DNA of 64,000 nt from a bacterium. GTDB taxonomy: Bacteria > Bacteroidota > Ignavibacteria > Kapaibacteriales > UBA2268. The position numbers and the translations under genes are program-made. The stretch spans positions 27,636 to 91,635 of the forward strand of contig JBAXXL010000007.1 of the NCBI GenBank assembly GCA_037127915.1, given 5' to 3'. Under the pieces are notes generated by a model that was given only the letters and a program-made list of their open reading frames with translations, was not told the origin of the DNA and searched no databases. The first letter of the stretch is position 1; every line of letters starts with the position of its first letter. This document shows, piece by piece, positions 2,214-22,138 of the stretch.

Positions 2214-4241
2214 TTAATCCCTAAGACAACGGACAGAGAACCCATTCTCCTTAATACCGTAGTACCTTACAAGAGCGGAAAGATTATAATTCAGACTCCT
2301 GCCCCAAGCAGTCGTAGTAACGCTCTCAGTAGAGCTCCACCAGTAACCGAAGCCTCCAACATCATTGAAAATACCATTGTGATAGCGATAGCCGCCCGGG
2401 AGAGCTGAAAAGCCACTTTCATTTGTAGCTCCTGTATTAGGATTAGACCATAGACCATCACCAAATTCAATTGTGCCTGTTGCTTTTAATTTTCCTCCGG
2501 CAATATTGTCCCCACCTAAACAGTCGGATAATACTGCCCATTCCGCATAGCTTGGCATATGCCAACCTGCAGGAGCTAAGCCACGCGGGTCATTTACTGC
2601 GTACCAATTGTAAAGTTTGCCGTAAGTAGCACCCATTTCTGGGTCATTATTATAAAAGCACCACGCTCCAGTGGTCAATTTTGACCATTTTAAAGAATCT
2701 CTAACCTCAGGAATTGGAGTTCCATCGCGGTATGTATCAACATCCAAATTACACCCCATCCATATTTGGTTTCCAATTTTAACATCTGGACAAGTCTCAT
2801 AATAAACAGTTTTAGTTGTTACTCTTGCAAAGCATTGATTACTCGGAGTATTCGGAACACGCCATTGATAAGCTAATCCTGTTGCGTTTTGAGTAATTAG
2901 AATCCAATTCGCTCCATTGTCTGTGCTATATTCTATTTTAACTTTTTCTTCAGGTATTACGCCTTCCCAAGTGATTATTGTATCGTTACCTACAGCTAAT
3001 ATTTCACTACCATTCGGTTCGATTAGTTTTAAAGTCTGAATTTTTGCTTTTTTTCCCGAGAAACCACCACTCGCATAATAATATACAGGACATTTATCAT
3101 TCTCTAAAGTGAATTTTGTAAAAGAATACCCGCTATCCGCCGGCAAGTAACTTACAGTTAAGTTTATGCTCTGACCTGAAGTAAGTATAAAATTTGTTGG
3201 TGAAATAGAATACGCAGCATTGGTAGATGTAATATTTGTAACATTGAAATCTGCATTTCTGGCTGTTACGATAACTGTTGTATCTTTATTTATTCCGGGA
3301 TTGGCATTTAAAAATTTAACTGATTTGGGTGAAAATTCTAATTTTGCTATTGAATTATCAGGTTGTTGATAGCTTGTATTTGAGATTAAATTTAATGATG
3401 TTATCTTTACTTCGACATTTGTTATACCAGCTTTGCAGGTAATCCCGCTTTGCCATTCGATTTGGCAGGGAACGCCACCTTGGGCCATCTGCAATAAATT
3501 CAAATAGGTTAACCGCGCTTCATCAATTGATGTTACATTCTCGAAATATTGTCCGCCTGTTTGTAATGCTATGTCTTTTAAACTTTGCGGAGTCGGCATA
3601 TTCAATGTTACTACATAAACAGTTACATTCTGAGCAAGTGCTTCAGAAATTATTTTTGATGTTAGAGGTTCTTGATTGGGTTGCCCATCCGAGAGAAACA
3701 CAATAACTCTTTTATACTTTGCATTTTGAGTAATTAGTAATCCGCCTGCCATAGAATTCAGCATCGCCGCATCATAATCTGTGCCACCACCGGCAAAAAG
3801 AGAATTTGCTTTTTGTAACAAAAGGGTTCTATCAGTTGTAAAATCCTGAATTAGATAGTTTCGAGAATTAAATGCAGTAATGGCACATTCGCTCTTTCCC
3901 AGTGGTAAACATTCAATCCAAGCTTTTGCCGCCGATTTTGCTAAATTCAAATTACCGGCACCCATTGAACCAGAAGCATCCATAACAAGTACACTCGATA
4001 ATGCTATTGGTGGTTTAGGGCTTGGGCAACTCACATTGGTAATAGTTCTCGGCTGTCCATTTTCAGTTATATTAAAATCAGAATTTGAGAGATTGGTGAT
4101 TTGATTTCCAGCGGCATCGAAAGCATAAAGATTTGCTTTGATGGTTGGAAATGCCGAAGCGTCAACATTAAAAACAGATAAACTCTGGCTATATGCTGTA
4201 TAGCAGAGGAAAAATATAATTATGTAGATGATTCTTTTCAT
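2214..4241 (-). CDS. Array paralog 1 (VWA subtype A): signal peptide, N-terminal module, VWA domain (DASGSM MIDAS), Ig-like domains, PNGGE/ITWEG beta-sandwich, C-terminal FISUMP domain (TIGR02145-like)
   Basis: 675-aa ORF. N-terminus MKRIIYIIIFFLCYTAYSQ is a signal peptide. VLVMDASGSM...VIVFLSDGQPN is a VWA/MIDAS signature. The C-terminus IWMGCNLDVD...KLYNWYAVND..GLAP.GWH.PS..EW..L...GG....GKLK.TG....W..PNTGATNESGFSALPGGYR...YWWSS...GFSVRCLRD matches the Fibrobacter succinogenes major paralogous domain pattern. Confidence 0.85.
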   Translation of the reverse strand: MKRIIYIIIFFLCYTAYSQSLSVFNVDASAFPTIKANLYAFDAAGNQITNLSNSDFNITENGQPRTITNVSCPSPKPPIALSSVLVMDASGSMGAGNLNLAKSAAKAWIECLPLGKSECAITAFNSRNYLIQDFTTDRTLLLQKANSLFAGGGTDYDAAMLNSMAGGLLITQNAKYKRVIVFLSDGQPNQEPLTSKIISEALAQNVTVYVVTLNMPTPQSLKDIALQTGGQYFENVTSIDEARLTYLNLLQMAQGGVPCQIEWQSGITCKAGITNVEVKITSLNLISNTSYQQPDNSIAKLEFSPKSVKFLNANPGINKDTTVIVTARNADFNVTNITSTNAAYSISPTNFILTSGQSINLTVSYLPADSGYSFTKFTLENDKCPVYYYASGGFSGKKAKIQTLKLIEPNGSEILAVGNDTIITWEGVIPEEKVKIEYSTDNGANWILITQNATGLAYQWRVPNTPSNQCFARVTTKTVYYETCPDVKIGNQIWMGCNLDVDTYRDGTPIPEVRDSLKWSKLTTGAWCFYNNDPEMGATYGKLYNWYAVNDPRGLAPAGWHMPSYAEWAVLSDCLGGDNIAGGKLKATGTIEFGDGLWSNPNTGATNESGFSALPGGYRYHNGIFNDVGGFGYWWSSTESVTTTAWGRSLNYNLSALVRYYGIKENGFSVRCLRD

Positions 4242-4462
4242 AAAAACCTTTTCTTTTCTTTTAATGCTAGTGCTAAATTATCATAATTTTATATATTAAA
4301 CAAATATTTCTTTATATCTATTTCGGCTAAAGCCGATTAAAACTTTTTTATCTTTTTCCACGACTTAAAAGTCGTGGCAACTAATTTCTTTCTATCTTTT
4401 TCTTCTTCTACTACTCTCTTATCTTCTTCTATTTAAAAACTTTACAAACTTTACGAACTCAT
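4242..4462 (-). repeat. Conserved inter-paralog spacer, copy 1. Read on the minus strand it is: stop codon, (ACTTTRYRA)n short tandem repeats, TCTTC-rich microsatellite, hairpin CCACGACTTAAAAGTCGTGG (4358..4377), hairpin TCGGCTAAAGCCGA (4323..4336), AT-rich promoter region, then the start of the next paralog
   Basis: Near-identical at the nucleotide level to 6533..6741 and 8791..8986 and largely to 11000..11212. Confidence 0.8.
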
Positions 4463-6532
4463 TTAATCAGTTACACAACGAACAGAGAAACCATATTCCT
4501 TATAATATGCGCCATTGTGAAGAGCCGTAAAATTACAATCCAAGTAAAAGCCATTTGCACTATCGGTATCCTTCTCATCAGAAGTCCACCACATTCCGAG
4601 GTATCCAGCATAGTCGAAAGTTCCATTGATATAACGGAGGCTCCCCGGGATAGCGGAAAAGCCGCTTTCGTTTGTAGCGCCGGTATTAGGAAAATCCCAT
4701 AAACCATCACCTTCGGATTTGGTTCCGGTGCTTTTTAATTTACCACCTCCTTCATCACCTACACATGCATATAATTTAGACCATTCTGCAACGGAGGATA
4801 TATGCCAACCTACTGGTGCTAAACCACGCGAATCATTAACTGCATACCAATTATATAATTTGCCATAGATTTTACCCATAGCAGGATCATTCCTGTAATA
4901 GCACCACGCGCCGGTGGTTAATTTTGACCATTGTGTTGAATCTCTAACCTCAGGTATTGAATCACCGTTACGGTAATGATCAACATCCAAATTACATCCC
5001 ATCCAAATTTGGTCACATATTTGAACATCTCCAATATCGCATCCCAAATACTCATATCCAAGTTTTGTAGTTACTCTTGCCAAGCACTGATTACTTGGTG
5101 TTTTTGGGATTTTCCAATTATAACTTAATCCTGTTGCAGAGTCTGCTATTGTTAGCCAATCCGTACCGTTATTCGTTGAATATTCCAACTTTACTTTTTC
5201 TTCGGGTATTACTCCTTCCCAAGTTATTACAGTGTCGTTTCCAACTGCTAAAACTTCCCCACCGTTCGGTTGAATGAGTTGTAATGTTTGTAATTTTGGT
5301 TTTTTTCCGGGAAATCCTCCGCTAGCAAAATAATTTGCTGTGCATACATCGTTCTCAAAAACAAATTTTGTATAAGTATAACCACTATCCACTGGAATAA
5401 ATCTTATCGTTAAATTTGTGCTTTGACCTGAATTTAAAACAAAGTTATATGGAGTAATAGTAAAAGCCGGATTTGAACTTGTAACGTTATTTATATTATA
5501 ATAAGAATTGACTGCTTTTATGCTGATATTTATATCTCTTGGAACTCCCGGTAAGGCATTAAGTATTTTTACCGATGAAGGAGAAAATTCTAATTTGGCA
5601 ACTGAATTGTTTGGTGATGGGTAGTCGAATCGTGCAATCAGTTTATTTGGTATTAACTTTATATTTACATTCGTAATGCCTGATATACAAGAGGCTTTGC
5701 TTTTCCATTGGATTTGGCAGGGACCGCTACCTTGGGCTTGCGCTTGTATGCGATTCGCTAAATCCTCAGCGGCAATTTTACTTGTGATACCATCGTATAA
5801 AAAACCTCCGGTTGCATCGGCTAATAATTGTAATGATTTCTTTATTCCGTTTGGTTCAGCTTCAGGTCTTGAATAAATTACTGCGTAAAATTGAATATTA
5901 TATTTGGAACAAGTATCTTTACACGCTTGAAGTTCGTTTTCACCTAGAGCAAACCACCAAGCATCGGTATATAGAATTGCCACTCGCTTGTATTGTCCTT
6001 TTTTCGCAATATTTAACAAACCTGCTAATGGATTTAATAAGTGTTCAACAAAATCATTATCACCATTAGCTATAATTGGTAATATTTTTGATAATAACAG
6101 CACCCTATTCGTTGTGAAATCTTGGACAATCAACGCTTGGTCGTTGCAAGTTTGTAAAGCGAATTCTGAAGGCGGCATAGGAATATTTTTACAAAGTTCT
6201 CTGGAAGTCGTTTTACCAAGTTCAACAGGAATTTCACCCGATAAACCTCCCCGCATAGATCCTGACACATCAATACTCATGGCTATTGAAACCTTTAACG
6301 AAGGATTAGGCTCAGGGCAACTCGTATTAGTTACAGTTCTTGACTGCCCATTTTCAGTTATGCTAAAATCAGAATTGGAGAAGTTTATGATTTGATTCCC
6401 AGACCCATCAAAAGCAAAGAAATTTGCTTTGATGGTAGGAAATTCCGAAGCATCAACATTAAATACAGATAAACTCTGGCTATATGCTGTATAGCAGAGA
6501 AAAAATATAATTATGTAAATGATTCTTTTCAT
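4463..6532 (-). CDS. Array paralog 2 (VWA subtype B variant): same architecture, C-terminal FISUMP domain
   Basis: 689-aa ORF. The first 40 aa are nearly identical to paralogs 1 and 3 at the nucleotide level. Middle region IAMSIDVSGSM...KRVAILYTDAWW is a divergent VWA-like domain; the C-terminus ends GFSVRCVTD. Confidence 0.85.
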   Translation of the reverse strand: MKRIIYIIIFFLCYTAYSQSLSVFNVDASEFPTIKANFFAFDGSGNQIINFSNSDFSITENGQSRTVTNTSCPEPNPSLKVSIAMSIDVSGSMRGGLSGEIPVELGKTTSRELCKNIPMPPSEFALQTCNDQALIVQDFTTNRVLLLSKILPIIANGDNDFVEHLLNPLAGLLNIAKKGQYKRVAILYTDAWWFALGENELQACKDTCSKYNIQFYAVIYSRPEAEPNGIKKSLQLLADATGGFLYDGITSKIAAEDLANRIQAQAQGSGPCQIQWKSKASCISGITNVNIKLIPNKLIARFDYPSPNNSVAKLEFSPSSVKILNALPGVPRDINISIKAVNSYYNINNVTSSNPAFTITPYNFVLNSGQSTNLTIRFIPVDSGYTYTKFVFENDVCTANYFASGGFPGKKPKLQTLQLIQPNGGEVLAVGNDTVITWEGVIPEEKVKLEYSTNNGTDWLTIADSATGLSYNWKIPKTPSNQCLARVTTKLGYEYLGCDIGDVQICDQIWMGCNLDVDHYRNGDSIPEVRDSTQWSKLTTGAWCYYRNDPAMGKIYGKLYNWYAVNDSRGLAPVGWHISSVAEWSKLYACVGDEGGGKLKSTGTKSEGDGLWDFPNTGATNESGFSAIPGSLRYINGTFDYAGYLGMWWTSDEKDTDSANGFYLDCNFTALHNGAYYKEYGFSVRCVTD

Positions 6533-6741: not shown

Positions 6742-8790
6742 TTAATCCCTTATACAGCGAACGGCGAAGCCAATTTCTTTTCTATCAATATACTTGTTAA
6801 TATATGAGTAATAATAATCCAGTCCTCTAATCCATGCATATCCGGTATTGTACTCAGTATTGCTCCACCAGTAACCGAGATAAGCCATATTATAGAATAA
6901 CCCATTGTTTCCGCGGTAACCGCCAGGAAGAGCCGAAAATCCAAATGCATTTGTGGCGCCTTCATTAGGACTATGCCATAAACCATCTCCCGCTTCAATT
7001 GTACCGGTACTTTTCAATTTACCGCCGGCTGTAGTTGATCCTCCAAGACAATTTTCTAATTCAGTCCATTCTGCTTCGGTAGGAATATGCCAGCCATAAG
7101 GAGCCAAACCCCTTGGATCGTTCACTGCATACCAATTGTAAAGTTTTCCATAAATTGCACCCAAAGACGTGTCATTATTATAATAACACCATGCACCTGA
7201 TCTTAGATTTGCCCATATTGTTGAATCAGTAACTTCTGGGATTGGTGTGCCATCACGATATTTATCTACATCTAAATTACAACCCATCCAAATTTGGTTA
7301 CATGTTTGGACATCAGGACAGGTAAATTCATAACCTATATTGGCAGTCACTCGTGCCAAGCATTCATTGCTCGGTGTCTTGGGGACACGCCAATTATAAG
7401 CCAATCCGGTTGCATTTTTTGCTACAAGAATCCAATTCAAACCATTATCAATACTATATTCAATATTGACTTTCTCTTCGGGTAATACTCCTTCCCAAGT
7501 TATTACGGTATCGTTTCCGACAGCAAAAAATTCACCACCATTTGGTTGAATGAGTTTTAAAGTCTGTATTTTTGGTTTCTTTCCAGGGAAACCTCCGCTC
7601 GCATAAAAATTGGTTGGGCAAATATTATTTTCAAATGCAAATTTTGCATATGTATAGCCACTGTCCAAAGGGAAATAACTTACTGTCAAATCTTTGCTTT
7701 CACCTGATTTAAGGAAAAAGTTTGTTGGTGTAATAGAATACGCTGTGTTTGTGCTTATTATATTTTGTACATTGAAATCAGCATACTTTGCTGTAACTGT
7801 AATGGTTGTATCTTTTTTTATACCGGGTTTTGCATTATTAAATTTAATAGACGATGGTATTATTTCCAGCTTAGCAACCGTCGAGTTTGGTGATTGATAG
7901 CTTGTGTATGATTTTAAATTATTTGGAATTAGTTTTAATTCTATATTAATTAATTCCGACACACAAGAAACTCCGCTTGTCCATTCTATCTGACATGGTT
8001 CGCCTCCTTGGACTTGCACCTGTATGCGATAAGCAATATCTTTCGCGGCGCTTAAACTCATTATACCATCGTAAAAATATCCGCCAGTGGCTTCGGCAAG
8101 TGATTGTAACGATTTTTTTATACCGTTTGGCTCCGCTTCCTGGTTAGAATAAATAACTGCGTAGAATTGAATACTAAATTTTTTACACGTATCAATACAT
8201 GCTTGGAGTTCACTTTGGTCCATTGCCTTCCACCAAGCATCAGTATATAAAACGGCAATTCGCTTGTTTTTTCCATTTTTTGCGATATTTAGCAAACCAT
8301 TTAATGGATTTAGTAAGTGCTCAACAAAATCATTTTCGCCGGTAGCTACAATTTGCGATATTTTTGATAACAACAATTCCTTGTTTGTTGTGAAATCCTG
8401 AATTATCAATGCTTTGTCGTTACAAGTTTGCAAGGCGAATTCTGATGGCGGCATAGGAACAGTATTACAAAGATCGCCGGCTGTTATTTTTCCGAGCTCA
8501 ACGGCAGTAGTCATAGAACCAGATACATCGATACTCATCGCTATTGAAACCTTTTGCGGCGTAATAGGATTAGGACAAATCACATTTGTAACCGTTCTCA
8601 ATTGGCCATTTTCTGTTATACTAAAATCAGAATTTGTTAGGTTTGCAATAGGCTTTCCTTTGACATCCAAAGCATAAAAATTTGCTTTGATAGTCGGAAA
8701 TGCAGAAGCGTCAACATTAAACAAAGATAAACTTTGGCTATATGCTGTATAACAGAGGAAAAATATTATTATGTAGATGATTCTTTTCAT
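6742..8790 (-). CDS. Array paralog 3 (VWA subtype B variant): same architecture, C-terminal FISUMP domain
   Basis: 682-aa ORF, MKRIIYIIIFFLCYTAYSQSLSLFNVDASAFPTIKANFYALD..., IAMSIDVSGSM, ending GFAVRCIRD. Confidence 0.85.
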   Translation of the reverse strand: MKRIIYIIIFFLCYTAYSQSLSLFNVDASAFPTIKANFYALDVKGKPIANLTNSDFSITENGQLRTVTNVICPNPITPQKVSIAMSIDVSGSMTTAVELGKITAGDLCNTVPMPPSEFALQTCNDKALIIQDFTTNKELLLSKISQIVATGENDFVEHLLNPLNGLLNIAKNGKNKRIAVLYTDAWWKAMDQSELQACIDTCKKFSIQFYAVIYSNQEAEPNGIKKSLQSLAEATGGYFYDGIMSLSAAKDIAYRIQVQVQGGEPCQIEWTSGVSCVSELINIELKLIPNNLKSYTSYQSPNSTVAKLEIIPSSIKFNNAKPGIKKDTTITVTAKYADFNVQNIISTNTAYSITPTNFFLKSGESKDLTVSYFPLDSGYTYAKFAFENNICPTNFYASGGFPGKKPKIQTLKLIQPNGGEFFAVGNDTVITWEGVLPEEKVNIEYSIDNGLNWILVAKNATGLAYNWRVPKTPSNECLARVTANIGYEFTCPDVQTCNQIWMGCNLDVDKYRDGTPIPEVTDSTIWANLRSGAWCYYNNDTSLGAIYGKLYNWYAVNDPRGLAPYGWHIPTEAEWTELENCLGGSTTAGGKLKSTGTIEAGDGLWHSPNEGATNAFGFSALPGGYRGNNGLFYNMAYLGYWWSNTEYNTGYAWIRGLDYYYSYINKYIDRKEIGFAVRCIRD

Positions 8791-8986: not shown

Positions 8987-10999
8987 TTAGTCCACAATAC
9001 AACGAACTGAAAAACCATATTCTTTAAAACCATAAACTCTATAACCATAAGCACTACTGCAGGTTAAATATCTTTGCCATCCATAAGGTTCAGAACTAGA
9101 TGTAGCTGTCCATAAATCAGCGTCATTTCTAACTCCACTAAATCGTCCGTCATTATACCGGAAGCCTCCGGGTAAAATAGATAAACCACTCGAATTTGTT
9201 GCTCCGGTATTTGGACTATTCCATAAGCTAGTACCGGTACTCTTCATTTTGGCACCTGCGACAACCAAGCCACCAAGAAAATTTTCAAGTTTACTCCATT
9301 CTTCATCGCTTGCCAGATGGTATCCATCTGGTGCCAAACCACGGGAATCGTTGAGGGCGTACCAATTATAAAGCTTACCATACACATCACCCATTGCCGG
9401 ATCGTTGTTGTAATAACACCAAGCACCCGTTTTTAGATTTTTCCATTCAGTTGGGTCTTTTACTTCGGGAATTGGATCGCCATTTCTATAAGTATCGACA
9501 TTTAAATTACAACCCATCCACGTTTGATTACCTATTGCAACATCGGGACAAGGTGGTATATAAGGCGAATTTGCGGTTATTCTGGCTAAGCATTGATTAC
9601 TTGGAGTCTTTGGTACCCGCCATAAGTAATTTAGTCCCTTCGATGATTTTGAAAGAAGTATCCAGTCCGCACCATTATTTGTACTGTATTCAAGTCTTAC
9701 ATCTTCCTCCGGCAAAACACCTTCCCAAGATATTAGAGTATCTGATCCAACAGCTAATACTTCACCACCGTTAGGTTGTAGAAGTTTTAAAGTTTGTATT
9801 TTTGGCTTTATACCAGGGAATCCACCGCTCGCATAAAAATAAGTTGGACATTGATTATTTTCAAGTGTGAATTTGCAGTAAGTATAACCGCTATCTGCCG
9901 GAACATAACTTACTATAAGATTAGTACTTTGTCCATTTTCAAGGATAAAGCTTGATGGGGCGATTGTAAATGAAGGACTTGTAGATATAATATTAGTTAT
10001 ATTAAAATCTGAATTTATGGCTTTGACAGTAATTGTCGCGTCTTTTTTTATTCCGGGAATTGCGTTTAAAAATTTTACTGAAGCAGGATTAATTTCCAGA
10101 TTAGCTATTGAATTTACTGGTGGTTGGTAATAGTTAAATGCTGTTAGATTTAATGGTATAAGCTTAAAATTCAGATTAGTCAAACCGGTTTTACAGGATA
10201 CTCCGCTCTTCCATACAATTTGACATGGACTTTCAACTTGGGCGGTCTTTAAAATAACACGGTAACATTGTTCAGCTTCTTCCTTGGTTTTTATATTTTC
10301 GAAATACATACCACCCGTTTGCGATGCAAAATCCTTCATACATTGGGGTGCCGGCATATTTAAAGTAACACAATAAATAGCAATATTGTTAGCCTTAGCC
10401 TCGCTAATTATTTCAGCTGTTTTTGGCTCGGAAGTAGGATCTCCATCAGATAGAAAAACGACAACTCTTTTATGCTTGCCTGTTTTTGCAATTAGAAGCC
10501 CACCACCGACATGGTCTATCATTGCGGCATTGTAGTTTGTACCACCAAAAGTAGTCAAATTATTAATAACAGCAATTAAATTAGGTTTATCTTTAGTAAA
10601 ATCTTGATTAATATAATTATTATCGCTGAAACTTGTTATAGCGCATTCTGAATTATTATCGGGTAGCATATTAATCCATTCAATAGCCGCAGATTTAGCC
10701 ATATCAAGACCAAATCCTTGCATTGAACCGGATATATCGATGACCAATACGCTGGATAATACTTCGGGAATTCTCGGGCTTGAACAAATCACATCTGTAA
10801 TTGTTCTTGCTTGTCCATTTTCCTTCACTTCAAAATCTGAAGGAGTGAGGTTTATAATTTGATTTCCAGTGGCATCCAAAGCATAAAAATTTGCCTTGAT
10901 GGTCGGAAATGCTGACGCATCAACATTAAACATAGATAAACTCTGGCTATATGCTGTATAACCAAATAATAAAAAGAGTATATAAATTGTTTTCTTCAT
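8987..10999 (-). CDS. Array paralog 4 (VWA subtype A): same architecture, C-terminal FISUMP domain
   Basis: 670-aa ORF, MKKTIYILFLLFGYTAYSQ signal peptide, VLVIDISGSM...VVVFLSDGDPTSEP VWA/MIDAS, ending GFSVRCIVD. Confidence 0.85.
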   Translation of the reverse strand: MKKTIYILFLLFGYTAYSQSLSMFNVDASAFPTIKANFYALDATGNQIINLTPSDFEVKENGQARTITDVICSSPRIPEVLSSVLVIDISGSMQGFGLDMAKSAAIEWINMLPDNNSECAITSFSDNNYINQDFTKDKPNLIAVINNLTTFGGTNYNAAMIDHVGGGLLIAKTGKHKRVVVFLSDGDPTSEPKTAEIISEAKANNIAIYCVTLNMPAPQCMKDFASQTGGMYFENIKTKEEAEQCYRVILKTAQVESPCQIVWKSGVSCKTGLTNLNFKLIPLNLTAFNYYQPPVNSIANLEINPASVKFLNAIPGIKKDATITVKAINSDFNITNIISTSPSFTIAPSSFILENGQSTNLIVSYVPADSGYTYCKFTLENNQCPTYFYASGGFPGIKPKIQTLKLLQPNGGEVLAVGSDTLISWEGVLPEEDVRLEYSTNNGADWILLSKSSKGLNYLWRVPKTPSNQCLARITANSPYIPPCPDVAIGNQTWMGCNLNVDTYRNGDPIPEVKDPTEWKNLKTGAWCYYNNDPAMGDVYGKLYNWYALNDSRGLAPDGYHLASDEEWSKLENFLGGLVVAGAKMKSTGTSLWNSPNTGATNSSGLSILPGGFRYNDGRFSGVRNDADLWTATSSSEPYGWQRYLTCSSAYGYRVYGFKEYGFSVRCIVD

Positions 11000-13422: not shown

Positions 13423-15456
13423 TTAATCTTTTACGCATCGTACTGAAAAACCATTGTCCTTACCGCTAGACCCTTTGCCAATAACTGTGTTTGTTGACGA
13501 TAGATTCCTAAACCAAGCTCGTGTAGCATTAAAATTGGAAGAACTCCACCAATAACCAGCAATCTCAAAACGGTCGAAAACTCCATAATTAAATCTATAA
13601 CCTCCTGGCTGAGCAGAAAATCCGCTTTCATCAGTTCCTCCATCATTGGGGCTTCGCCATAAACCATCATAGTTCTCAATTGTACCTGAAATTTTTAATT
13701 TTCCGCCTGCTAAATCGGCACCTCCTAAGCATTTTTCTAATTCTGCCCATTCAGCATCCGAAGGGATATGCCAACCTTTGGGAGCTAATCCACGCGGATC
13801 ATTCACAGCATACCAATTGTATAATTTTCCATAGACCTTCCCCATCGCCGGGAAATTATTATAATAACACCAAGCACCGGTTGTAAGGTTAGCCCACACA
13901 GTTGGGTCGGTAACCTCGGGTATAGGGTCGCCATTACGGTAGGTATCCACGTCAAGATTACAACCCATCCAAACTTGATTACAAATAAGTACATTCCCAT
14001 TATCACAGCCGAATATCGAATTTGTATTTGCTGTTACTCTTGCCAAACACTTATTACTTATAGTATTGGGTACCCGCCATTTGTAGTTTAACCCGCTCGC
14101 GGTATCTGCTATGAGAATCCAATTCGCGCCATTATTAGTACTGTAATCAATACTGACTTTATCTGTTGGTAGAATACCATCCCAAGTTATCAAAGTATCG
14201 GAACCAACCGGAAATGCTTCTCCACCATTTGGTTTAATTAGCTCAATTGATTTTGATGCCGGTTTCTTTCCAGGGAAGCCACCGCTCACAAAATAATTAG
14301 TAGGGCACTTATTATTTTCAAAAGTATATTTAGCATACGAATAGCTACTGTCAGATGGTAAAAAGCTAACCGTCAAATCCAGGCTTTCTCCTGAATTAAG
14401 CTTAAATTTGGTTGGAGTTATAGTAAAATCAGGATTTGAACTTGTAATATTGGTAAGATTGAAATCTGCGTTTATGGCAGTTGCGGTTACCAATGTATCT
14501 TTCTTAATTCCCGGAATAGCTTTTGAAAATTTTACATTAGGCGGTGTGAACTCGATTCGGGCTAAACCACTATTTGGTAATATATAATTAGTTTTGGCAC
14601 TTATGTTATTTTGGACAAGATTAATTTCAACATTTCTTATTTCCGCTTTACAAGAAACTTCGCTCAACCATTCAATTTGACAGGGTTCGCCGCCTTGTGC
14701 ATTGTATAATATTTTTCGGTAATAATCTTCGGCTTCTTCCTTGTTTTTGACGTTTTCAAAATATAATCCTCCTGTTTGATTTGAAAAATCCTTCATACAT
14801 TGAGGAGCGGGCATATTTATTGAAATACAGTATATAGTGATATCATTGGCATTGGCTTCACTGATTATTTTGAAAGTTTGCGGTTCAGTACTTGGATCAC
14901 CGTCAGACAGAAATACAATAACTCGTTTGTATTTTCCAGTCTTTGCAATTAATATTCCTCCTGCTTCCGGGTCTATCAATGCCGCATTATATTTAGTTCC
15001 TTTCTTGATTGTTAAACTATTAATTCCATTAATTAACTTCGATTTTTTTGTTGTGAAATCCTGATTAAGATAATTAATCTCACTGAAACTAGTAATTGCA
15101 CATTCGGATTTACCCAATGTTATCAAATCTATCCAAGCATAAGCCGCCGCTTTGGCGATATTAAGACCATATTCTGCCATTGAACCTGATACATCCATTA
15201 CTAAAACGGATGATAATGGAATAGGCGGTGTAGGATTTGGACAATTTACACCTGTAACAATTCGCGATTGCCCATTTTCAGTTACGCTAAAATCAATTGG
15301 TAATAAGTTTGTAATTTCATTCCCTGCGGCATCAAATACAAAGAAATCAGCTTTAATTGTTGGAAATGACGAAGTATCAACATTATATACTAAAATACTC
15401 TGGCTATACGCTGTATAACCTAATAAAAATAATACTATGTAAATTGTTTTTCTCAT
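13423..15456 (-). CDS. Array paralog 6 (VWA subtype A): same architecture, C-terminal FISUMP domain
   Basis: 677 aa, MRKTIYIVLFLLGYTAYSQ, VLVMDVSGSM...VIVFLSDGDPSTEP, ends GFSVRCVKD. Confidence 0.85.
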   Translation of the reverse strand: MRKTIYIVLFLLGYTAYSQSILVYNVDTSSFPTIKADFFVFDAAGNEITNLLPIDFSVTENGQSRIVTGVNCPNPTPPIPLSSVLVMDVSGSMAEYGLNIAKAAAYAWIDLITLGKSECAITSFSEINYLNQDFTTKKSKLINGINSLTIKKGTKYNAALIDPEAGGILIAKTGKYKRVIVFLSDGDPSTEPQTFKIISEANANDITIYCISINMPAPQCMKDFSNQTGGLYFENVKNKEEAEDYYRKILYNAQGGEPCQIEWLSEVSCKAEIRNVEINLVQNNISAKTNYILPNSGLARIEFTPPNVKFSKAIPGIKKDTLVTATAINADFNLTNITSSNPDFTITPTKFKLNSGESLDLTVSFLPSDSSYSYAKYTFENNKCPTNYFVSGGFPGKKPASKSIELIKPNGGEAFPVGSDTLITWDGILPTDKVSIDYSTNNGANWILIADTASGLNYKWRVPNTISNKCLARVTANTNSIFGCDNGNVLICNQVWMGCNLDVDTYRNGDPIPEVTDPTVWANLTTGAWCYYNNFPAMGKVYGKLYNWYAVNDPRGLAPKGWHIPSDAEWAELEKCLGGADLAGGKLKISGTIENYDGLWRSPNDGGTDESGFSAQPGGYRFNYGVFDRFEIAGYWWSSSNFNATRAWFRNLSSTNTVIGKGSSGKDNGFSVRCVKD

Positions 15457-15578: not shown

Positions 15579-17612
15579 TTAGTCTTTAATGCACCTGACC
15601 GAAAATCCATTTTCTTTTTTACTATAGCTCCTCGTGACGCTCGTAGTGGTATATGACATACCTCTTAACCAAGCATTTGCTTTATCATACTCCGATGAGC
15701 TCCACCAATAACCACTACTGCCAAGGTTATCGAAAGCCCCGTAAGCAAAGCGGTACCCGCCGGGTAATGCTGAAAAACCGAACTCGTCAGTAGCTTCGGT
15801 ATTTGGATTATACCATAATCCATCTCCATTTTCTATTGACCCTGTACTTTTTAGTTTCGCCCCCGCAATCGTTACACCGCCAAGACAGAATTCCAAATCT
15901 CGCCAATCCGTATCACTCGATATATGCCAACCTTGAGGAGCTAAGCCCCGTGGGTCGTGAACAGCATACCAATTGTACAACTTACCATATTTTGCTTCCA
16001 TTCCAGGGTCGTTGTTATAATAACACCAAGCACCGGTTTTCAAATTTATCCAATCAGTAGGGTCTTGTACTTCAGGAATTGGATCGCCATTGCGATAGTG
16101 ATCCACATTAAGATTGCACCCCATCCAAATCTGCGAACATATTCGTATTTCGCTATTTTGGCAATCGTAAATTGAAGAAGTCTTGGCTGTTACCCTAGCC
16201 AAACATTTATTACTCGGAGTTTTAGGTACCCGCCATTTATGAATTAACCCCTTTGCAGTATCCGATATTTGTAACCAATTTAAACCATTATTAGTGCTAT
16301 ATTCTAATTGCACTTCCTCATCCGACATTATTCCTTCCCAAGTTATCACAGTATCGCTTCCTACCGCGAATACTTCACCGCCATTGGGGCTTATTAGTTT
16401 TAACGTTTGTGTTTTTGGTTTCTTACCCGGAAAACCACCACTTGCATAATACTTTGTCGGGCATATATCATTCTCGAAAGTGAATTTTGTATAAGTATAA
16501 CCACTATCTACGGGTAGATAACTTATAGTTAACACTTTGCTTTGACCTGCATTTAAAATAAAACTTGTTGGATTCATTGTAAAAGCCGGATTGGAACTGA
16601 TAACATCAGTTATATTAAAATCAGCATTTACTGCTTTGATGGTTATGGATGAGTCTTTAGGAATTCCGGGTATAGTTTTTAATAACTTGATCGACATTGG
16701 GTCAAATTCTAATTGCGCAATCGCACTATTTGGTGATTGGTAGCTGGCGTTTGCAGTTGTATTATTTGCTATCAGTTTTAATGCTACATCCGTTATACCG
16801 GATTCACAGGAAATTCCGCTTTCCCAACCAATTTGGCAAGGATCTCCACCTTGTGCAGTAATTAATATTTCTCTATAACACCCTTCGGCTTCTTCATTTG
16901 TTCTAATATTCTCAAAAAACAATCCTCCCGTTTTATTAGAAAATTCCTTCATACATTGAGGAGCCGACATTCTGATTGCAATACAGTATATTGTTATATC
17001 ATTGGCAATTGCAGTACTAATAATCTTTGCTGTATCAGGCTCAAAATTGGGTTCCCCGTCTGAAAGCAAAAGGATGACCCTTTTGTATTTACCCCTATTG
17101 GCAACCAAAATACCGCCTGACATAGCATCTAACATTGCGGCATTATAGTTTGTTCCCTGCATGCAGGTTAAACTATTAATCCCATTCTTCAACTTTGATT
17201 TATCAACTGTGAAATCCTGATTGAGATAATTCGCATCACTGAAACTTGTTATAGCACATTCAGAATTCCCGGCTGGAAGCATATCAACCCAAACATTAGC
17301 CGCCGCTTTGGCAATGTCAAGACCTTTGCCGCTCATAGAACCCGATACATCCATAACTAAAACAGAGGATATTATAATCGGTGGTTTTATCTCAGGACAG
17401 CTCACAAAAGTTATTTTTCTAGGCTGTCCGTTTTCAGTTAATTCAAAATCATTTGGTAATAAGTTTGTCAATTGACTACCCTTTAGATCGAAGGCAAAAA
17501 AGTTCGCCTTGACATTCGGGAATCCCCCAGCATCGACATTGGAAATAGATAAGCTCTGGCTATATGCGGTATAGCTTAATAAAAAGAATACTATGTAAAT
17601 TATTTTTCTCAT
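15579..17612 (-). CDS. Array paralog 7 (VWA subtype A): same architecture, C-terminal FISUMP domain
   Basis: 677 aa, MRKIIYIVFFLLSYTAYSQ, VLVMDVSGSM...VILLLSDGEPNFEP, ends GFSVRCIKD. Confidence 0.85.
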   Translation of the reverse strand: MRKIIYIVFFLLSYTAYSQSLSISNVDAGGFPNVKANFFAFDLKGSQLTNLLPNDFELTENGQPRKITFVSCPEIKPPIIISSVLVMDVSGSMSGKGLDIAKAAANVWVDMLPAGNSECAITSFSDANYLNQDFTVDKSKLKNGINSLTCMQGTNYNAAMLDAMSGGILVANRGKYKRVILLLSDGEPNFEPDTAKIISTAIANDITIYCIAIRMSAPQCMKEFSNKTGGLFFENIRTNEEAEGCYREILITAQGGDPCQIGWESGISCESGITDVALKLIANNTTANASYQSPNSAIAQLEFDPMSIKLLKTIPGIPKDSSITIKAVNADFNITDVISSNPAFTMNPTSFILNAGQSKVLTISYLPVDSGYTYTKFTFENDICPTKYYASGGFPGKKPKTQTLKLISPNGGEVFAVGSDTVITWEGIMSDEEVQLEYSTNNGLNWLQISDTAKGLIHKWRVPKTPSNKCLARVTAKTSSIYDCQNSEIRICSQIWMGCNLNVDHYRNGDPIPEVQDPTDWINLKTGAWCYYNNDPGMEAKYGKLYNWYAVHDPRGLAPQGWHISSDTDWRDLEFCLGGVTIAGAKLKSTGSIENGDGLWYNPNTEATDEFGFSALPGGYRFAYGAFDNLGSSGYWWSSSEYDKANAWLRGMSYTTTSVTRSYSKKENGFSVRCIKD

Positions 17613-17707: not shown

Positions 17708-20700
17708 CTACATCTTCACAAACTTCGCTATTTTAAGCCCTACTTTTACAAAATAAATACCTTTTGGCAAATTGGAGATGTTGAATCGTAGTAGCACGGC
17801 GTGCCGTGCCGAAGCCGTTAACACTTTTTCACCAAGTGTGTTGTAGATTTGAATTTCTGAACCTTCCGAAGGTTCGAAACCTTCGGAAGGTTTCAAAGTT
17901 ATTGTTATAAAATCACCTGCTGGGTTAGGAATAATATCAATAAATTCCGAATCATCATTCACACTCGATTCACCCGTTCTAAATGTCCAAATTTCGCTCC
18001 AGTAAGCTGAATCAATAGATTCTTCATTCCAAATTCGTACACGCCAATAGTAAAGCATCTGTGATTCTAAATTCGGTACAAAATGTTCAGTTGTAATGAT
18101 TGAATCCCGTGAAAAAACTAAATTCGTAAAATTATAGTTTTTTGAAATTTGCAATTGATAGTACTCGGAACCTATTACATCAGACCATTTGAAATTGACT
18201 TCCTCCCCCAAACCGGTTTGAGTGTTTTCAGGGTAGATTAGAGACAATTTTGACATTCCCGTTTTAAATTGCCAAATATTTGACCAATAGCCCAATGTGT
18301 CGCCCGATTCATTTCTCATTCTCCAAAAGTATTTGGTGAAATACTTCAAATCCACAACATTCATATGACTCTGATGTGTAAATATATTATCAGCTATAGT
18401 TTTAAAGTCTTTATCTTCTGAAATTTGCAATCTATAATACTTCTGATATATTCCTTCTTCCCATTCGAATTTGATAACTTGATGTAAATTAGAGGATTGA
18501 TTCACAGGTGCAATCAATTTTATACTATCCATTAATGTTGTAAATTTCCAAACCGGCGACCAATTGCTCTCCTCAGAACCAATAATAGCCTTTACACGCC
18601 AAAAATATGTTTGCAAAAAGTCTAAACGAGTGAACTTATAGTTGGTTAGTTTTGTTGTTGTATCAATTGCAATATCAGAGAAAATTTCATCCTTAGAAAC
18701 TTGTAAATTATATGATTCGTATGCTGAATTATTCTTCCAAATCAATTTGCAATCGATTGGAACATTAATTGTATCGTTAGCAGGCGAGACCAAATCTTGT
18801 GAATTACCCACTACTCCTTCGCCATAAAGCTGAACCTCAGCAGGACTGCCAACTCCATCGTAATAAAATGCAAGTATTCCGCTGGTGCGGCCAATATCGC
18901 TTGGTTTGAAGCGTAAATCAATCTTTTTAGTTTCATTAGGTTTTAAAGTGAAATTATCAATAGTTGCGATAGTTTTGAAATCCGTTAAATTTGGTCCATT
19001 GATTTGGGTATTTGTAATTGCTATAGGTTTCGGGCTTATGTTTTTTATTGTTAACACCTGAATTGAGTCTCTTTGATCACCTACATTCACTTTCCCAAAA
19101 TCCACTATCTCACTTTCGATTTTTAGTTGTTGTTCAATTCCTTCACCCCTAATATTTCGAACTAAAGTATCCGCCTGTGTTATTATGACCATTTCAGCAT
19201 TATATAAGCCTGCATGTTTCGGACTGAATCTGATTTCTTCCGGATGCCATAAATTTGGAAAAACTGTGTATTTTGGTAATTCAGAGACCAGCGAAAATGC
19301 ATTAGTGTCAGTACCACGGAAATAAATAGAATCTACAGTGAATGGAAGATTTCCCACATTTTTGATAAAATCAGTAACTATCGAGTCTTTTATACTTCTA
19401 ACAAGACATGTTTTCATATTTATATCATTGACTTTAATTAAAGGCTCTACTATTGAAAAGACAGCATCTGATTGGTCGGATTGAAGAATTACCTTTTGAA
19501 AATTTAACTTGGCAACCCAAAAATCTTCGTTGGAATCATGATAATCAAAACCAGCGATAATAAGTCCTCCATCAACAGTCGTTTGAAAACTATAGCCTAA
19601 ACTTACATCTCCCATTTGTAAAATTCTTTGAGAAATTATTTTACCTACCGAATTTAACTTAACTAACCAAGTACCTATACGATTATTGGGATTTTTTACA
19701 TCTCCATCATTTGAATATGTAATAATTGCTATAACATACCCTTCGTCATTAGTCCGACAAATCGAACCATAATGTTCAAAGTTACTCCCTCCAATTGCTT
19801 TTTCCCATTCTAACTTACCATTAGTTTTTAATTTTAAAATCCAACAGTCAGAAAAGGGTGTTGAAGGTTGGTTATGTGATCCGGTAACATCACCATCATT
19901 AGACCATGTTTCCCCAGCTACAATGTACCCACCATCTTTTGTTTGTTTAATTGAATATGGATAATCATTTTTAGACCCTCCCCACGTATATTGCCATTCA
20001 ATTAATCCCATTGAGTCAAGTTTACAAACCCAATAATCAGGTTTATGATTGTAAGCTAGGCTTTCACCCACCACGATGTAGCCATTATCATCAGTTATCT
20101 GAACATCGGCAGTGTAGTTTATAGTACCTTTGCTAGACGTTTTTTGCCATTCAATTTCTCCTATAGAATTTAATTTCAATAACCACACAAAACTATCAGT
20201 TGAACTCATATTAACAGCAACAATATAACCTCCATCACGGGTTTGTTTAATTGCACGGGCTTCAGCAGAATAACCCTCACTATAAGTTTTTTGCCACTCC
20301 ACATCACCATTTGTTTTAAACTTTACTATCCAAATATTTGAACCTCCGGTATATCCAATAACATCACCATCCGGTGATTGGGTTGATCCTGCTACAATAT
20401 AACCACCATCCATAGTTTGCTGAACGGAAAAAGCTTCGTCATCTTCACTCCCACCCAAGGACTTCTGCCACATTATCATGCCTAATGAATCCACTTTTAC
20501 TAACCACCAATCAAATTTACCTTTATTTTCTGTTAGGTCTCCATCTTTGGACAAAGAAACACCGGCAACTATATAACCACCATCATTTGTTTGCTGAATG
20601 GAATTTGCAACGTCAGAATCGCTCCCTCCATAAGATTTTTGCCATTCAGTAATTATTTCATCACTAACGTATCCATGACTTATTCTGATTATACAGCGGT

Positions 20701-22138
20701 TGCTTAATGACTTTGGAATGTTTTTCCAAATATATTTCAAACCCGTAGCTTTGTCAGTAATTACTTTCCAAGATACTCCATTATCTATACTGTATTTCAG
20801 TGTGACTAAATCTGAAGGCATAACTCCTTCCCAAGTAATCAGTGTATCCAAACCAGTTACAAAAACTTCACCTCCATTTGGGTGAGTTAGTCTTAGTGTT
20901 TGTTGTATCATAGGCTTATCTGGAAAACCACCAATGGCACTGAAACTCGCTGAACAATTTTCTGTTAATATTTCAAATCCTCCATAGCTTAGATTTGAAT
21001 CAGTTGGAGTAAATCGTATAGGTATTTTAAATGTTGCATTTTTTGGAATGGTTAAAGGAAAAGATACATTTTTTATTCGGTAAGCATTCGAACCATATTT
21101 TAAATTAATAGCTGTGATTTTAAAATCACTTCCGATTGCTTTTATGTTTATAGTTGTATCAATTGATTTTCCCGGAACCACCTGCCCGAATAAAATAGAC
21201 AATGGAGTAACTTCAAGTTTTTGAATGGCTGTCGCCGGCGTAGGGTACATATTCGCTACTTTTAGTCCATTCCAAGTTAACTCAACATTAACATCTGCGG
21301 TATCACAATTTGCTTCACTTTTCCAGGTAATTGAACAAAGTTCGGCACCTTGGGCTAATTTTAAAATTAAGTGATATATTTCGGTGGCTTTGCTTTCAGT
21401 AGTAATATTTTCATACCACTGACCACCGGTTTGAGTTGATATATCCTGCAACTCTTTTGGACATTTCATATCCACTGAAACGACAAATATTTTGCATTTT
21501 TGCAATTTTGCTTCCGCAACTATTTTGCTTACATCTGTTTTTGAGCTAGATAGTCCATCAATCATCAATACAATTACTTTTTGATATTTTCCTGTTTTGG
21601 TTGCGCGCAAACCACCGCAGATCGAGTCAATTAATGCTTTGTTAAAATCGGTACCATCGCCGTAAGATAAATTGTTGACTGCGGTCAGCAATTTATTTTT
21701 ATCGGGTGTGAAATCCTGATTAAAATAGTTAAAGTGGTTGAAAGTTGTCAGAGCGCATTGGCTATTGTTCGCTGGAATAGCATTAACCCAGGCTTGTGCG
21801 GCGGCTTTTGCTATGTCTAAATGTATTCCGTTCATTGAATTTGAAATATCCATAACCAGAACACTCGAAAGCACGAGTGGTTTTATTGGAGTTGAGCACG
21901 TAACATTGAGTACTGTCCTTGTTAATCCATTTTCTTTTATCGACAACTCACCTTTATCAGGACTTTGCTGGTTCCATGAGGCGTCGAAAGCAAAAAAGTT
22001 TGCCTTGACATTTGGGAATCCCGAAGCATCAACATTAGAAATAAATAAGTTCTGACTATTTGCAGAATAAGTAATCAAGAATATAATAAAACAAAGTAAT
22101 CGTTTTTTCATAAAGCACCTACTCAATAAAATGAACAT
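17708..22138 (-). CDS. Giant (1476 aa) array member. Same N-terminal module, VWA and Ig-like domains as the paralogs, then a multi-blade beta-propeller (SBBP-like DGGYIVAG repeats), further Ig-like domains, three fn3-like repeats and a T9SS C-terminal sorting domain; no FISUMP domain
   Basis: N-terminus NLFISNVDASGFPNVKANFFAFDASWNQ...VLVMDISNSM...VIVLMIDGLSS matches the paralog N-module plus VWA. At least seven repeats of the type SYGGSDSDVANSIQQTNDGGYIVAGVS...DWWLVKVDSLGMIMWQK are beta-propeller blades. Three repeats resemble WKNNSAYESYNLQVSKDE...YFWRVKA (fn3-like). C-terminus NPAGDFITITL...IQIYNTLGEKV...LPKGIYFVKVG is a typical T9SS CTD. An alternative start at the internal MKKRLLCF (22111) is possible. 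Confidence 0.85.
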   Translation of the reverse strand: MFILLSRCFMKKRLLCFIIFLITYSANSQNLFISNVDASGFPNVKANFFAFDASWNQQSPDKGELSIKENGLTRTVLNVTCSTPIKPLVLSSVLVMDISNSMNGIHLDIAKAAAQAWVNAIPANNSQCALTTFNHFNYFNQDFTPDKNKLLTAVNNLSYGDGTDFNKALIDSICGGLRATKTGKYQKVIVLMIDGLSSSKTDVSKIVAEAKLQKCKIFVVSVDMKCPKELQDISTQTGGQWYENITTESKATEIYHLILKLAQGAELCSITWKSEANCDTADVNVELTWNGLKVANMYPTPATAIQKLEVTPLSILFGQVVPGKSIDTTINIKAIGSDFKITAINLKYGSNAYRIKNVSFPLTIPKNATFKIPIRFTPTDSNLSYGGFEILTENCSASFSAIGGFPDKPMIQQTLRLTHPNGGEVFVTGLDTLITWEGVMPSDLVTLKYSIDNGVSWKVITDKATGLKYIWKNIPKSLSNRCIIRISHGYVSDEIITEWQKSYGGSDSDVANSIQQTNDGGYIVAGVSLSKDGDLTENKGKFDWWLVKVDSLGMIMWQKSLGGSEDDEAFSVQQTMDGGYIVAGSTQSPDGDVIGYTGGSNIWIVKFKTNGDVEWQKTYSEGYSAEARAIKQTRDGGYIVAVNMSSTDSFVWLLKLNSIGEIEWQKTSSKGTINYTADVQITDDNGYIVVGESLAYNHKPDYWVCKLDSMGLIEWQYTWGGSKNDYPYSIKQTKDGGYIVAGETWSNDGDVTGSHNQPSTPFSDCWILKLKTNGKLEWEKAIGGSNFEHYGSICRTNDEGYVIAIITYSNDGDVKNPNNRIGTWLVKLNSVGKIISQRILQMGDVSLGYSFQTTVDGGLIIAGFDYHDSNEDFWVAKLNFQKVILQSDQSDAVFSIVEPLIKVNDINMKTCLVRSIKDSIVTDFIKNVGNLPFTVDSIYFRGTDTNAFSLVSELPKYTVFPNLWHPEEIRFSPKHAGLYNAEMVIITQADTLVRNIRGEGIEQQLKIESEIVDFGKVNVGDQRDSIQVLTIKNISPKPIAITNTQINGPNLTDFKTIATIDNFTLKPNETKKIDLRFKPSDIGRTSGILAFYYDGVGSPAEVQLYGEGVVGNSQDLVSPANDTINVPIDCKLIWKNNSAYESYNLQVSKDEIFSDIAIDTTTKLTNYKFTRLDFLQTYFWRVKAIIGSEESNWSPVWKFTTLMDSIKLIAPVNQSSNLHQVIKFEWEEGIYQKYYRLQISEDKDFKTIADNIFTHQSHMNVVDLKYFTKYFWRMRNESGDTLGYWSNIWQFKTGMSKLSLIYPENTQTGLGEEVNFKWSDVIGSEYYQLQISKNYNFTNLVFSRDSIITTEHFVPNLESQMLYYWRVRIWNEESIDSAYWSEIWTFRTGESSVNDDSEFIDIIPNPAGDFITITLKPSEGFEPSEGSEIQIYNTLGEKVLTASARHAVLLRFNISNLPKGIYFVKVGLKIAKFVKM

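Follow-up and report, generated by a model that had tools for sequence, protein, structure and literature searches.

Why does a bacterium keep a row of large, related, exported proteins side by side in its genome, and is the diversity among them fixed or still being generated? This question is raised by a 64-kb stretch of DNA, hereafter called the window (positions 27,636 to 91,635 of contig JBAXXL010000007.1, assembly GCA_037127915.1), from a bacterium of the Kapaibacteriales (Ignavibacteria, Bacteroidota). Our listing of the open reading frames (ORFs) of the window reproduced exactly the row of eight minus-strand genes between positions 2214 and 22138 that an initial annotation had reported. 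That annotation took them for eight paralogs, each combining a VWA domain, immunoglobulin (Ig)-like domains and a C-terminal FISUMP (Fibrobacter succinogenes major paralogous) domain, with a ninth paralog at positions 1 to 2097. We name the array genes G0 to G8 (Table 1), call the front half that they share the chassis, and call the module that follows the chassis the head. The description holds for the seven genes G1 to G7. In contrast, G8 has the front half only, without FISUMP, and the supposed ninth paralog, G0, has neither VWA nor FISUMP: it is an Ig-repeat cargo protein of type IX secretion (T9SS). On balance, we read the array as a fixed repertoire of modular, Sec-exported extracytoplasmic binding proteins.

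Domain organization of the array genes

In an alignment, G1 to G7 have one domain order in common: a signal peptide, a small N-terminal module (N-module), a VWA domain, an Ig-like region, a beta-sandwich with a PNGGE motif and a FISUMP domain. The same order, which had been proposed for the seven 2-kb members, is seen in the AlphaFold2 model of G7 (predicted local distance difference test score, pLDDT, 86.8), with confident domains and flexible linkers. A second model reached a pLDDT of 92.8. Between paralogs, identity is 46-65% for protein and about 65-80% for DNA, and the organization of the array is far above chance expectation. As the initial annotation had expected, all seven 2-kb products exceeded the cutoffs of both FISUMP models at their C-terminus, with 136-160 bits for PF09603 (Fib_succ_major; E 1e-39 to 1e-46, cutoff 33.9) and 87-101 bits for TIGR02145 (cutoff 41.65). 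Neither model matched G8 or G0.

Repeated genes of this kind raise the concern that the array is an assembly artefact of collapsed or duplicated repeats. The 2.2-kb units are indeed repetitive, and some independent assemblies stop at the array boundaries (the short contigs L002 and L009; contig L008 ends after G1). However, the copies are divergent, three independent assemblies (ENA ERZ4201038, ENA ERZ4223250 and Logan SRR12676970) match the gene junctions of the window at 99.99-100%, and homologous arrays are present in several other genomes. The ERZ4201038 match alone extends over 12.2 kb, from G6 to G1. The window was also placed on contig CAZYBI010000007.1 of the metagenome-assembled genome GCA_964645665.1. 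We therefore reject the artefact, to which we assign practically no probability, and agree with the initial annotation that the array is genuine.

Family-wide column counts and entropies were taken over 93 homologs. Gln is found at +1 (Gln19), after an AxS-type cleavage site, in 92 of the 93, and a Gln at this position is the Bacteroidetes Q-rule signature of signal peptidase I (SPase I) substrates (PMC5837995). No lipobox is present in G1-G7, and Cys occupies the lipobox-like position in only 19 of the 93 homologs. These counts point to signal peptidase I. Several cysteine positions are kept in at least 88 of the 93 homologs.

The initial annotation placed a VWA domain with the motif of a metal-ion-dependent adhesion site (MIDAS) in all seven 2-kb genes. 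The residues agree with this for G1, G4, G6 and G7, which, together with G8, pass the VWA model (PF00092, 35-54 bits, cutoff 23.8) and have the full set D-x-S-x-S...T...D. In contrast, G2, G3 and G5 are below the cutoff (PF13519, 21-26 bits, cutoff 27), yet align throughout, and their MIDAS Thr is replaced by Asn. In the family, the complete D-S-S-T-D set is present in 75 of 93 homologs, and the Thr position is occupied by Thr in 75 and by Asn in 16. The N-module and VWA domain of G1-G7 align with positions 10-274 of TIGR03436 ("acidobact_VWFA"), another multi-paralog family (cutoff 81.25 bits). G1 passes (83.1 bits), whereas G2-G8 do not (G4, G6 and G7, 72-75 bits; G3, 58; G2 and G5, 39; G8, 33). 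Thus, the conserved N-terminal module of 55 amino acids (aa) that had been noted is visible in the alignment but already belongs to a modelled unit. The model does not cover Ig, sandwich or FISUMP extensions, and it has no assigned function. The proposed ASH/Ig-like pair is seen as an Ig-like region in the alignment and in the AlphaFold2 model, although all Ig/ASH matches of G1-G7 are under the Pfam cutoffs.

When the full-length G7 model was searched with Foldseek, BatB, the Mfa5 tip protein (E 7e-10), ArnB and integrin I-domains were returned. These are VWA matches alone, and none was obtained for the folds of the N-module or the sandwich. A family profile searched against PDB sequences matched the VWA domain of Mfa5 among its best hits (E 3e-9) and gave no match for the FISUMP part. 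The PNGGE sandwich is also found in about 25-50 tandem copies in giant proteins of 2,800-6,500 aa (P0121-P0135), which makes it a frequent stalk element in putative surface proteins of very large size.

Variability of the FISUMP head

The FISUMP head adopts the C-type-lectin/FGE fold. Its best structural match is TvpA, the variable protein of a diversity-generating retroelement (DGR), and further matches are the C-terminal domain of Lcl, Bd2740, InvE, intimin, invasin and the fimbrial protein BACOVA_04982. Fib_succ_major/DUF1566 proteins constitute DGR target class "d" (PMC5758913), and G1-G7 have the layout of such targets, namely a C-type-lectin-fold domain with the variable region (VR) at its C-terminal end. 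Over the 93 homologs, column entropy is minimal (about 1.2 bits) in the sandwich and the FISUMP core, as against 2.6 bits at G7 residues 616-668, the last ~55 residues of the head. This is the most variable folded segment, and only the 10-residue linker before the head has a higher value (2.8 bits).

Two true DGRs were found beside FISUMP genes, in metagenome-assembled genomes (MAGs) of Chitinophagales (locus L038, 69-3134) and Chitinophagaceae (locus L051, 9812-11824). Each cassette consists of a FISUMP target, bAvd, a template repeat (TR) and a reverse transcriptase (RT). In both, the VR is the last 192 nucleotides (nt) of the FISUMP ORF, and the mismatches between TR and VR fall on TR adenines in 100% (27/27) of cases in L038 and in 86% in L051. 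The RT of L051 is fragmented and adjoins a transposase-like ORF. The hypervariable segment of G7 coincides with the VRs of these two DGRs. Within G1-G7, the columns that DGRs target have an entropy of 1.74, as compared with 0.64 for the other columns of the VR window (p = 8e-7).

The codons of this segment were scored across G1-G7 (161 residues) at the 23 columns for which the DGR templates have AAY. At these columns, 97.5% of the residues are reachable from AAY by adenine changes. Lys, Glu, Gln, Met and Trp together account for 4/161 residues against a background of 16.9% (p = 1.5e-8), amino acids with several codons end in C or T in 54/70 cases where 36.6 were expected (p = 1.5e-5), and Ser is encoded by AGY in 14/18. 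As a control, 138 equally variable columns elsewhere in the proteins gave 21.7% for the five amino acids, 47% for C/T endings and 33% for AGY Ser. The same footprint was observed in 93 FISUMP-only genes from Bacteroidota and in nine other chassis genes. Therefore, it is a family-wide property and not specific to the array.

Searches for active diversification

Because the initial annotation regarded the family as diversifiable, the machinery that would diversify it is of interest. No DGR RT, Avd or TR was found in the 64-kb window by BLAST with the 3′ ends, by an adenine-specific TR/VR scan or by Pfam scans of most ORFs with at least 120 aa. The adenine-specific scan, a self-BLAST, covered the window and 90 loci, and recovered L038 and L051 as positive controls. 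For RVT_1 and bAvd, 20 further ORFs across 27-63 kb were scanned and stored Pfam annotations were used for 22.3-27.3 kb; neither domain was found in the scanned window ORFs, several ORFs of less than 280 aa having been left unscanned. RT, Avd and TR were likewise not found in a further ~7.8 kb of the contig past the window end at which G0 lies (L007) or in the 10-kb flanks of other chassis arrays. Furthermore, the seven VR-equivalent segments of G1-G7 show synonymous and non-adenine differences, which excludes a single TR common to all of them. There was no variation between samples, with 0 mismatches in 12.2 kb against L008, and L003 differed from L004 by one mismatch in 20.7 kb.

Other mechanisms gave a similar picture. 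There are 0 pairs of inverted repeats of at least 25 nt in positions 1-23000, and invertible promoters were rejected on this basis. No recombinase was found among the window ORFs scanned against Pfam. Every copy in the array is complete, with its own start codon and signal peptide, and there are no silent cassettes. Thus, real diversity exists at the positions that DGRs mutagenise, but an invertible promoter, silent cassettes, a DGR in the window and variation between samples were not found. Two contigs with the same five-gene array, L005 and L006, are identical over 16.5 kb and then differ at 115 positions (16539-17556) within the VWA half of the final gene, at the contig end. This suggests a paralog switch by recombination or an assembly chimera, and not VR variation.

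G8, G0 and the type IX secretion system

After the chassis, G8 continues with a beta-propeller (about aa 490-880; CylK-like, E 2.5e-9), two choice-of-anchor-D Ig domains, three FN3-like modules and a T9SS sorting domain. This is the architecture class of most long chassis proteins elsewhere. The sorting domain (PF18962/TIGR04183) scored 40.5 and 34.8 bits in G8 and 41.5 bits in G0, and was absent from G1-G7 in the Pfam/NCBIfam searches. G0 has a signal peptide of its own, shows no VWA or FISUMP match in the same searches and aligns with the Ig part of G8 at 50% identity over 237 aa. Just before its sorting domain, at aa 679-725, there is a sub-threshold cohesin match (PF00963, E 2.7e-4, 21.6 bits; cutoff 24.1).

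A module of Ig repeats and a C-terminal sorting domain (CTD) like that of G0 is the next gene downstream in the window and at loci L090, L003, L011, L012 (twice) and L015. In G8 and L014, this module is fused in frame to the chassis. The Pfam lists of P0031, P0041, P0099 and P0105 (FISUMP, Ig families and Por_Secre_tail) suggest the same fusion. G8 and G0 resemble T9SS cargo with choice-of-anchor-D Ig repeats in that they carry NF012200 and PF18962/TIGR04183 above cutoff; unlike such cargo, G1-G7 have no sorting domain, and it is adjacency and fusions only that suggest their relation to the T9SS. The surface location that the initial annotation proposed is thus only putative for G1-G7, which have an SPase I signal peptide but neither a lipobox nor a T9SS sorting domain.

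Relatives, alternative heads and history of the array

A database search with G7 returned more than 200 hits, mostly full-length, from MAGs and metagenomes named Ignavibacteria, Kapabacteria, Bacteroidota and FCB group. With a chassis-only query against 1.84 billion cluster representatives (50% identity), 1,402 proteins were matched at E<=1e-30, a number that includes giant proteins aligned only via 20-50 tandem sandwich copies. Among the 150 best chassis hits, most of those with a complete chassis have 1,200-1,650 aa, like G8. Some relatives bear automatic names such as "FISUMP domain-containing protein" or "VWFA-related protein". In species-representative genomes, the full architecture was found only in Kapaibacterium/Ignavibacteria-like MAGs, while FISUMP alone occurs across Bacteroidota. 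The heads on the same chassis also include FGE-sulfatase-like domains, WD40 or other propellers and L-type lectin, and proteins with these heads usually add choice-of-anchor-D Ig domains and a T9SS sorting domain. Thus, the VWA-FISUMP fusion described initially holds for G1-G7, but FISUMP is one of several heads. No description of this fusion or of such an array was found in the searched literature, as the initial annotation had supposed; the architecture is nevertheless not rare, with more than 200 homologs and about 1,400 chassis cluster matches.

Homologous arrays, whose existence in related genomes had been left as a check, were found in Ignavibacteria/Kapabacteria-type MAGs: at least 11 mixed-head genes in L003/L004, five chassis-FISUMP genes in L005 and three in L090. 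L090 is syntenic with the window, since 2-Hacid_dh, Wzy-like, methyltransferase, TatC and SPOR genes flank both, and its downstream G0 orthologue is 75% identical. Between the same flanks, L090 has three chassis-FISUMP genes and the window has seven and G8, and the number of copies at this fixed locus thus varies. G7 is 71% identical to P0002, which belongs to L090, and G6 is 73% identical to P0006, whereas G6 and G7 are 63% identical to each other; P0002 and P0006 lie together on one JGI contig of 44,753 nt. Because G6 and G7 are closer to their external orthologues than to each other, the duplications are old and the copies have been maintained.

Recombination between copies is visible in G1. 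By sliding DNA identity, G1 is a mosaic, in which the promoter and 5′ end resemble those of G2/G3 (91-96% identity at the 5′ end) and the VWA region is type A (34-54% identity to G2/G3). The promoter, signal-peptide and 5′ segments common to G1, G2 and G3 are 89-96% identical over the best-conserved 200 alignment columns. Since G1 has a type A VWA while G2 and G3, with near-identical 5′ ends, have type B, G1 is a recombinant.

Intergenic units, gene starts and neighbouring genes

The spacers of the array are 95-221 nt long and have a repeated layout of AGTTYRTAA repeats, a GAA-rich tract, a palindrome (in four of them) and a promoter-like motif. Three to five 9-nt AGTTYRTAA units (gene strand) stand directly after the stop codons of G2-G7 and are followed by the GAA-rich tracts. 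Of 17 minus-strand occurrences in the window, 14 are in array spacers; shuffling gave an expectation of about 6 on both strands. The palindrome is perfect and 20 nt long. Palindromes, the only hairpin family checked in this respect, have no U-tail on the gene strand, which rules them out as canonical intrinsic terminators. Upstream of G0, G4, G7 and G8 there is a second family of hairpins (ACTCATCCGATGA...TCATCGGATGAGT). In a manual motif search, a Bacteroidetes-type promoter-like motif, TTTG-N20-TAATTTAG, was found about 38 nt before the ATG of G1, G2, G3 and G5. A scan for sigma-70 promoters gave 75 sites where 76.7 were expected, and was uninformative because the Bacteroidota consensus differs.

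Two of the array ORFs extend upstream of their likely starts. For G5, the start is likely the internal ATG at 13288, where the homologous signal peptide begins, and for G8 it is likely the internal ATG at 22111. The deposited G5 call (712 aa) uses a TTG 21 codons upstream of the conserved signal peptide. The deposited G4 call (648 aa) misses the signal peptide and disagrees with the start supported by homology.

Outside the array, the window encodes another FISUMP protein of 541 aa, with an N-terminal FISUMP domain, two choice-of-anchor-D Ig domains and a T9SS sorting domain. Therefore, the FISUMP head is also displayed directly as T9SS cargo in the same genome. The window is rich in T9SS substrates, since four further genes are predicted to encode such cargo (Por_Secre_tail); among them, one product has a transglutaminase-like core and another a FlgD-Ig domain.

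Table 1. Coordinates of the array genes, their parts and other features of the window
Feature	Position	Strand	Description	Evidence
G0	1..2097 (partial in window; 897 aa in whole contig, L007 12082-14775)	-	choice-of-anchor-D/ASH Ig repeats, T9SS C-terminal sorting domain	Pfam/NCBIfam
G1	2214..4241	-	chassis (N-module, VWA type A, Ig, sandwich) and FISUMP head	ORF, Pfam/NCBIfam, alignment
G2	4463..6532	-	chassis with divergent VWA type B and FISUMP head	ORF, Pfam/NCBIfam, alignment
G3	6742..8790	-	chassis with VWA type B and FISUMP head	ORF, Pfam/NCBIfam, alignment
G4	8987..10999	-	chassis with VWA type A and FISUMP head	ORF, Pfam/NCBIfam, alignment
G5	11213..13288 (ORF to 13351, TTG)	-	chassis with VWA type B and FISUMP head	ORF, Pfam/NCBIfam, alignment
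G6	13423..15456	-	chassis with VWA type A and FISUMP head	ORF, Pfam/NCBIfam, alignment
G7	15579..17612	-	chassis with VWA type A and FISUMP head; modelled exemplar	Pfam/NCBIfam, AlphaFold2
G8	17708..22111 (ORF to 22138)	-	chassis, then beta-propeller, Ig, FN3-like, T9SS sorting domain; FISUMP absent	Pfam/NCBIfam, alignment
G7 domains (residues)	signal peptide 1-18, N-module 20-78, VWA 79-255, Ig-like 256-392, sandwich 400-478, FISUMP 489-677			
G7 VWA domain	16848..17378	-	MIDAS residues D88, S90, S92, T154, D185	Pfam VWA, E 7.6e-12
Hypervariable VR-equivalent segment, G7	15582..15773	-	last 64 FISUMP codons	
VR-equivalent segments, other copies	G1 2217-2408, G2 4466-4657, G3 6745-6936, G4 8990-9181, G5 11216-11410, G6 13426-13617		last ~192 nt	
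Example spacer, G2 to G1	4242..4462	-	AGTTYRTAA repeats after stop, GAA-rich tract, palindrome CCACGACTTTTAAGTCGTGG (4358-4377), second small hairpin, promoter-like motif	
Similar spacer units	6533-6741, 8791-8986			
Partial spacer units	11000-11212, 13289-13422			
AGTTYRTAA repeats	4450-4467, 6711-6746, 8974-8991, 11195-11221, 13391-13426, 15548-15574			
Palindrome CCACGACTTAAAAGTCGTGG	4358-4377, 6650-6669, 8906-8925, 11120-11139			
Other FISUMP protein	44617-46242	-		
Four T9SS cargo genes	29229-33296 and 46331-49924	-		

Discussion

The locus is not a new kind of system, since it contains known domains only and its family is frequent in metagenomes. With the FISUMP proteins of Fibrobacter and Bacteroidota, G1-G7 share a C-terminal region of 190 aa far above the family cutoffs and the properties of being extracytoplasmic, Cys-rich and multi-paralog. 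In a phylogenomic survey, most Fibrobacteres had 17-119 FISUMP copies per genome, and a binding role was proposed, as a putative cellulose-binding protein or cohesin analogue (PMC4704652). Members of the family often have a lipoprotein signal (PMC5758913). In contrast, the heads of G1-G7 are mounted on a 470-aa VWA chassis with an SPase I peptide and Gln at +1, and are encoded in tandem at one locus. The array also differs from the DGR variable proteins (TvpA, Mtd, TaqVP and the class "d" Legionella LdtA): the searches of the window yielded no RT, Avd or TR, the segments do not come from one template and there is no population variation, so that diversity is stored as seven fixed genes and is not generated in one. 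The VWA-tipped adhesins (P. gingivalis Mfa5 and tips of the RrgA/SpaC type) are similar in that a MIDAS-type VWA is followed by Ig-like stalk domains. Mfa5, a VWA protein, depends on the T9SS (PMC7835359), and the same is predicted for G8. Unlike these adhesins, G1-G7 have no T9SS domain, and they join a VWA placed at the extreme N-terminus to a lectin-fold head. No fimbrillin family was found in Pfam scans and stored annotations of most of the window, where several short ORFs were unscanned; a fimbrial operon and isopeptide or sortase features were likewise not noticed, although no search was aimed at them.

If the seven heads are variants of one binding surface, they might still be rewritten today, as remote targets of an active DGR elsewhere in the genome. 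Genuine DGR targets exist among FISUMP homologs and have their VR at the same place, the AAY-type footprint lies at the equivalent columns, and within this MAG our searches were confined to the window and the contig extension. However, no RT, Avd or TR was found in these regions or in the flanks of other chassis arrays, the synonymous and non-adenine differences among the seven segments are incompatible with a single TR, and independent samples match with no mismatch (L008) or one (L003/L004). Hypermutation of the array at present is therefore very improbable in our judgement. Diversity could instead be used by antigenic or phase variation, with one copy expressed at a time for evasion of phages or predators. 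A tandem array of surface-type paralogs, near-identical promoters, signal peptides and 5′ segments in G1-G3 with a recombinant G1, and copy numbers that differ among related genomes would all fit such a mechanism. It is nevertheless an unlikely one, because neither inverted repeats nor a recombinase was found in the regions scanned, all copies are complete genes and none is a silent cassette, and at least four have their own promoter-like motif. In addition, the paralogs are kept as orthologues across genomes, which argues for non-redundant functions.

A further possibility is that the proteins do not bind ligands at the surface but are periplasmic or enzymatic, with catalytic heads like those of FGE, EgtB or PvdO, or with VWA domains that serve as envelope assembly or chaperone factors. 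The periplasm would be the default location of G1-G7, given their signals, but the T9SS sorting domains on fused relatives imply an extracellular location. As for catalysis, DGR variable proteins typically receive the PF03781 annotation as well (PMC5758913), the best structural match, TvpA, is a non-enzymatic DGR variable protein and the further matches are adhesin tips. Moreover, one would not expect the most variable part of a domain to be its active site. We consider this possibility rather unlikely.

Thus, we return to a fixed repertoire of exported binding proteins. According to this model, cleavage by signal peptidase I would expose Gln at the N-terminus, followed by the small beta N-module, the MIDAS VWA, the Ig-like region and the beta-sandwich spacer. 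The chassis would carry an exchangeable head, which in G1-G7 is FISUMP, a putative ligand-binding module of the C-type-lectin/FGE fold. The last ~55 residues of the head, which differ most among the copies, would correspond to the surface that DGRs rewrite in homologous FISUMP proteins. Because the variation falls on this surface, each paralog most likely recognises a different ligand, either a glycan or a protein. The array may then hold a set of specificities fixed in the germ line. Duplication, together with recombination among the copies, would have produced it, and the variable codons of the scaffold still seem to bear a DGR-type, AAY-derived footprint. G8 combines this chassis with a beta-propeller as its head and an anchor for type IX secretion, and the probable partner of G1-G7, which have no CTD, is a T9SS cargo protein (G0 or one like G8).

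Several observations weigh against this model. All lines of evidence are sequence comparisons and predicted structures. G1-G7 have no T9SS sorting domain, lipobox or known outer-membrane export signal and would by default stay in the periplasm. The T9SS partner is a candidate suggested by gene neighbourhood and fusions, and at L013 a chassis gene has no G0-like neighbour. In the fused relatives anchored by the T9SS, the VWA end is distal and the head is in mid-chain, so that either of the two could be the main adhesive part. Three of the seven VWA domains (G2, G3 and G5) are without the MIDAS Thr. Finally, the codon footprint is family-wide and thus uninformative about this array in particular, and it could partly reflect selection for binding loops rich in Tyr, Asn, Ser, Gly and Asp.

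A more specific history can be put forward only tentatively, and we think it possible but rather doubtful. In this "fossilised DGR library", the heads would first have been diversified by adenine mutagenesis of AAY codons, and useful variants would then have been fixed and multiplied, each as a gene of its own, on the common VWA chassis. To reach the surface, products that have no CTD would travel on the neighbouring Ig-repeat T9SS cargo or dock to it, as a split version of the fused proteins. If this is true, somatic-style hypervariation has been turned into a heritable repertoire of paralogs.

The locus frames FISUMP as a C-type-lectin-fold head with specificity loops of the kind that DGRs rewrite, mounted on a MIDAS-VWA chassis and kept as a fixed panel. 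It predicts that different paralogs bind different ligands, that the chassis has a common partner and that the proteins are linked to T9SS cargo. On this one scaffold, binding sites may have been diversified in two ways, by retroelement mutagenesis and by gene duplication. For the uncultured Ignavibacteria and Kapabacteria, these proteins would represent a major class of envelope proteins, likely used for attachment to particles, polymers or other cells.

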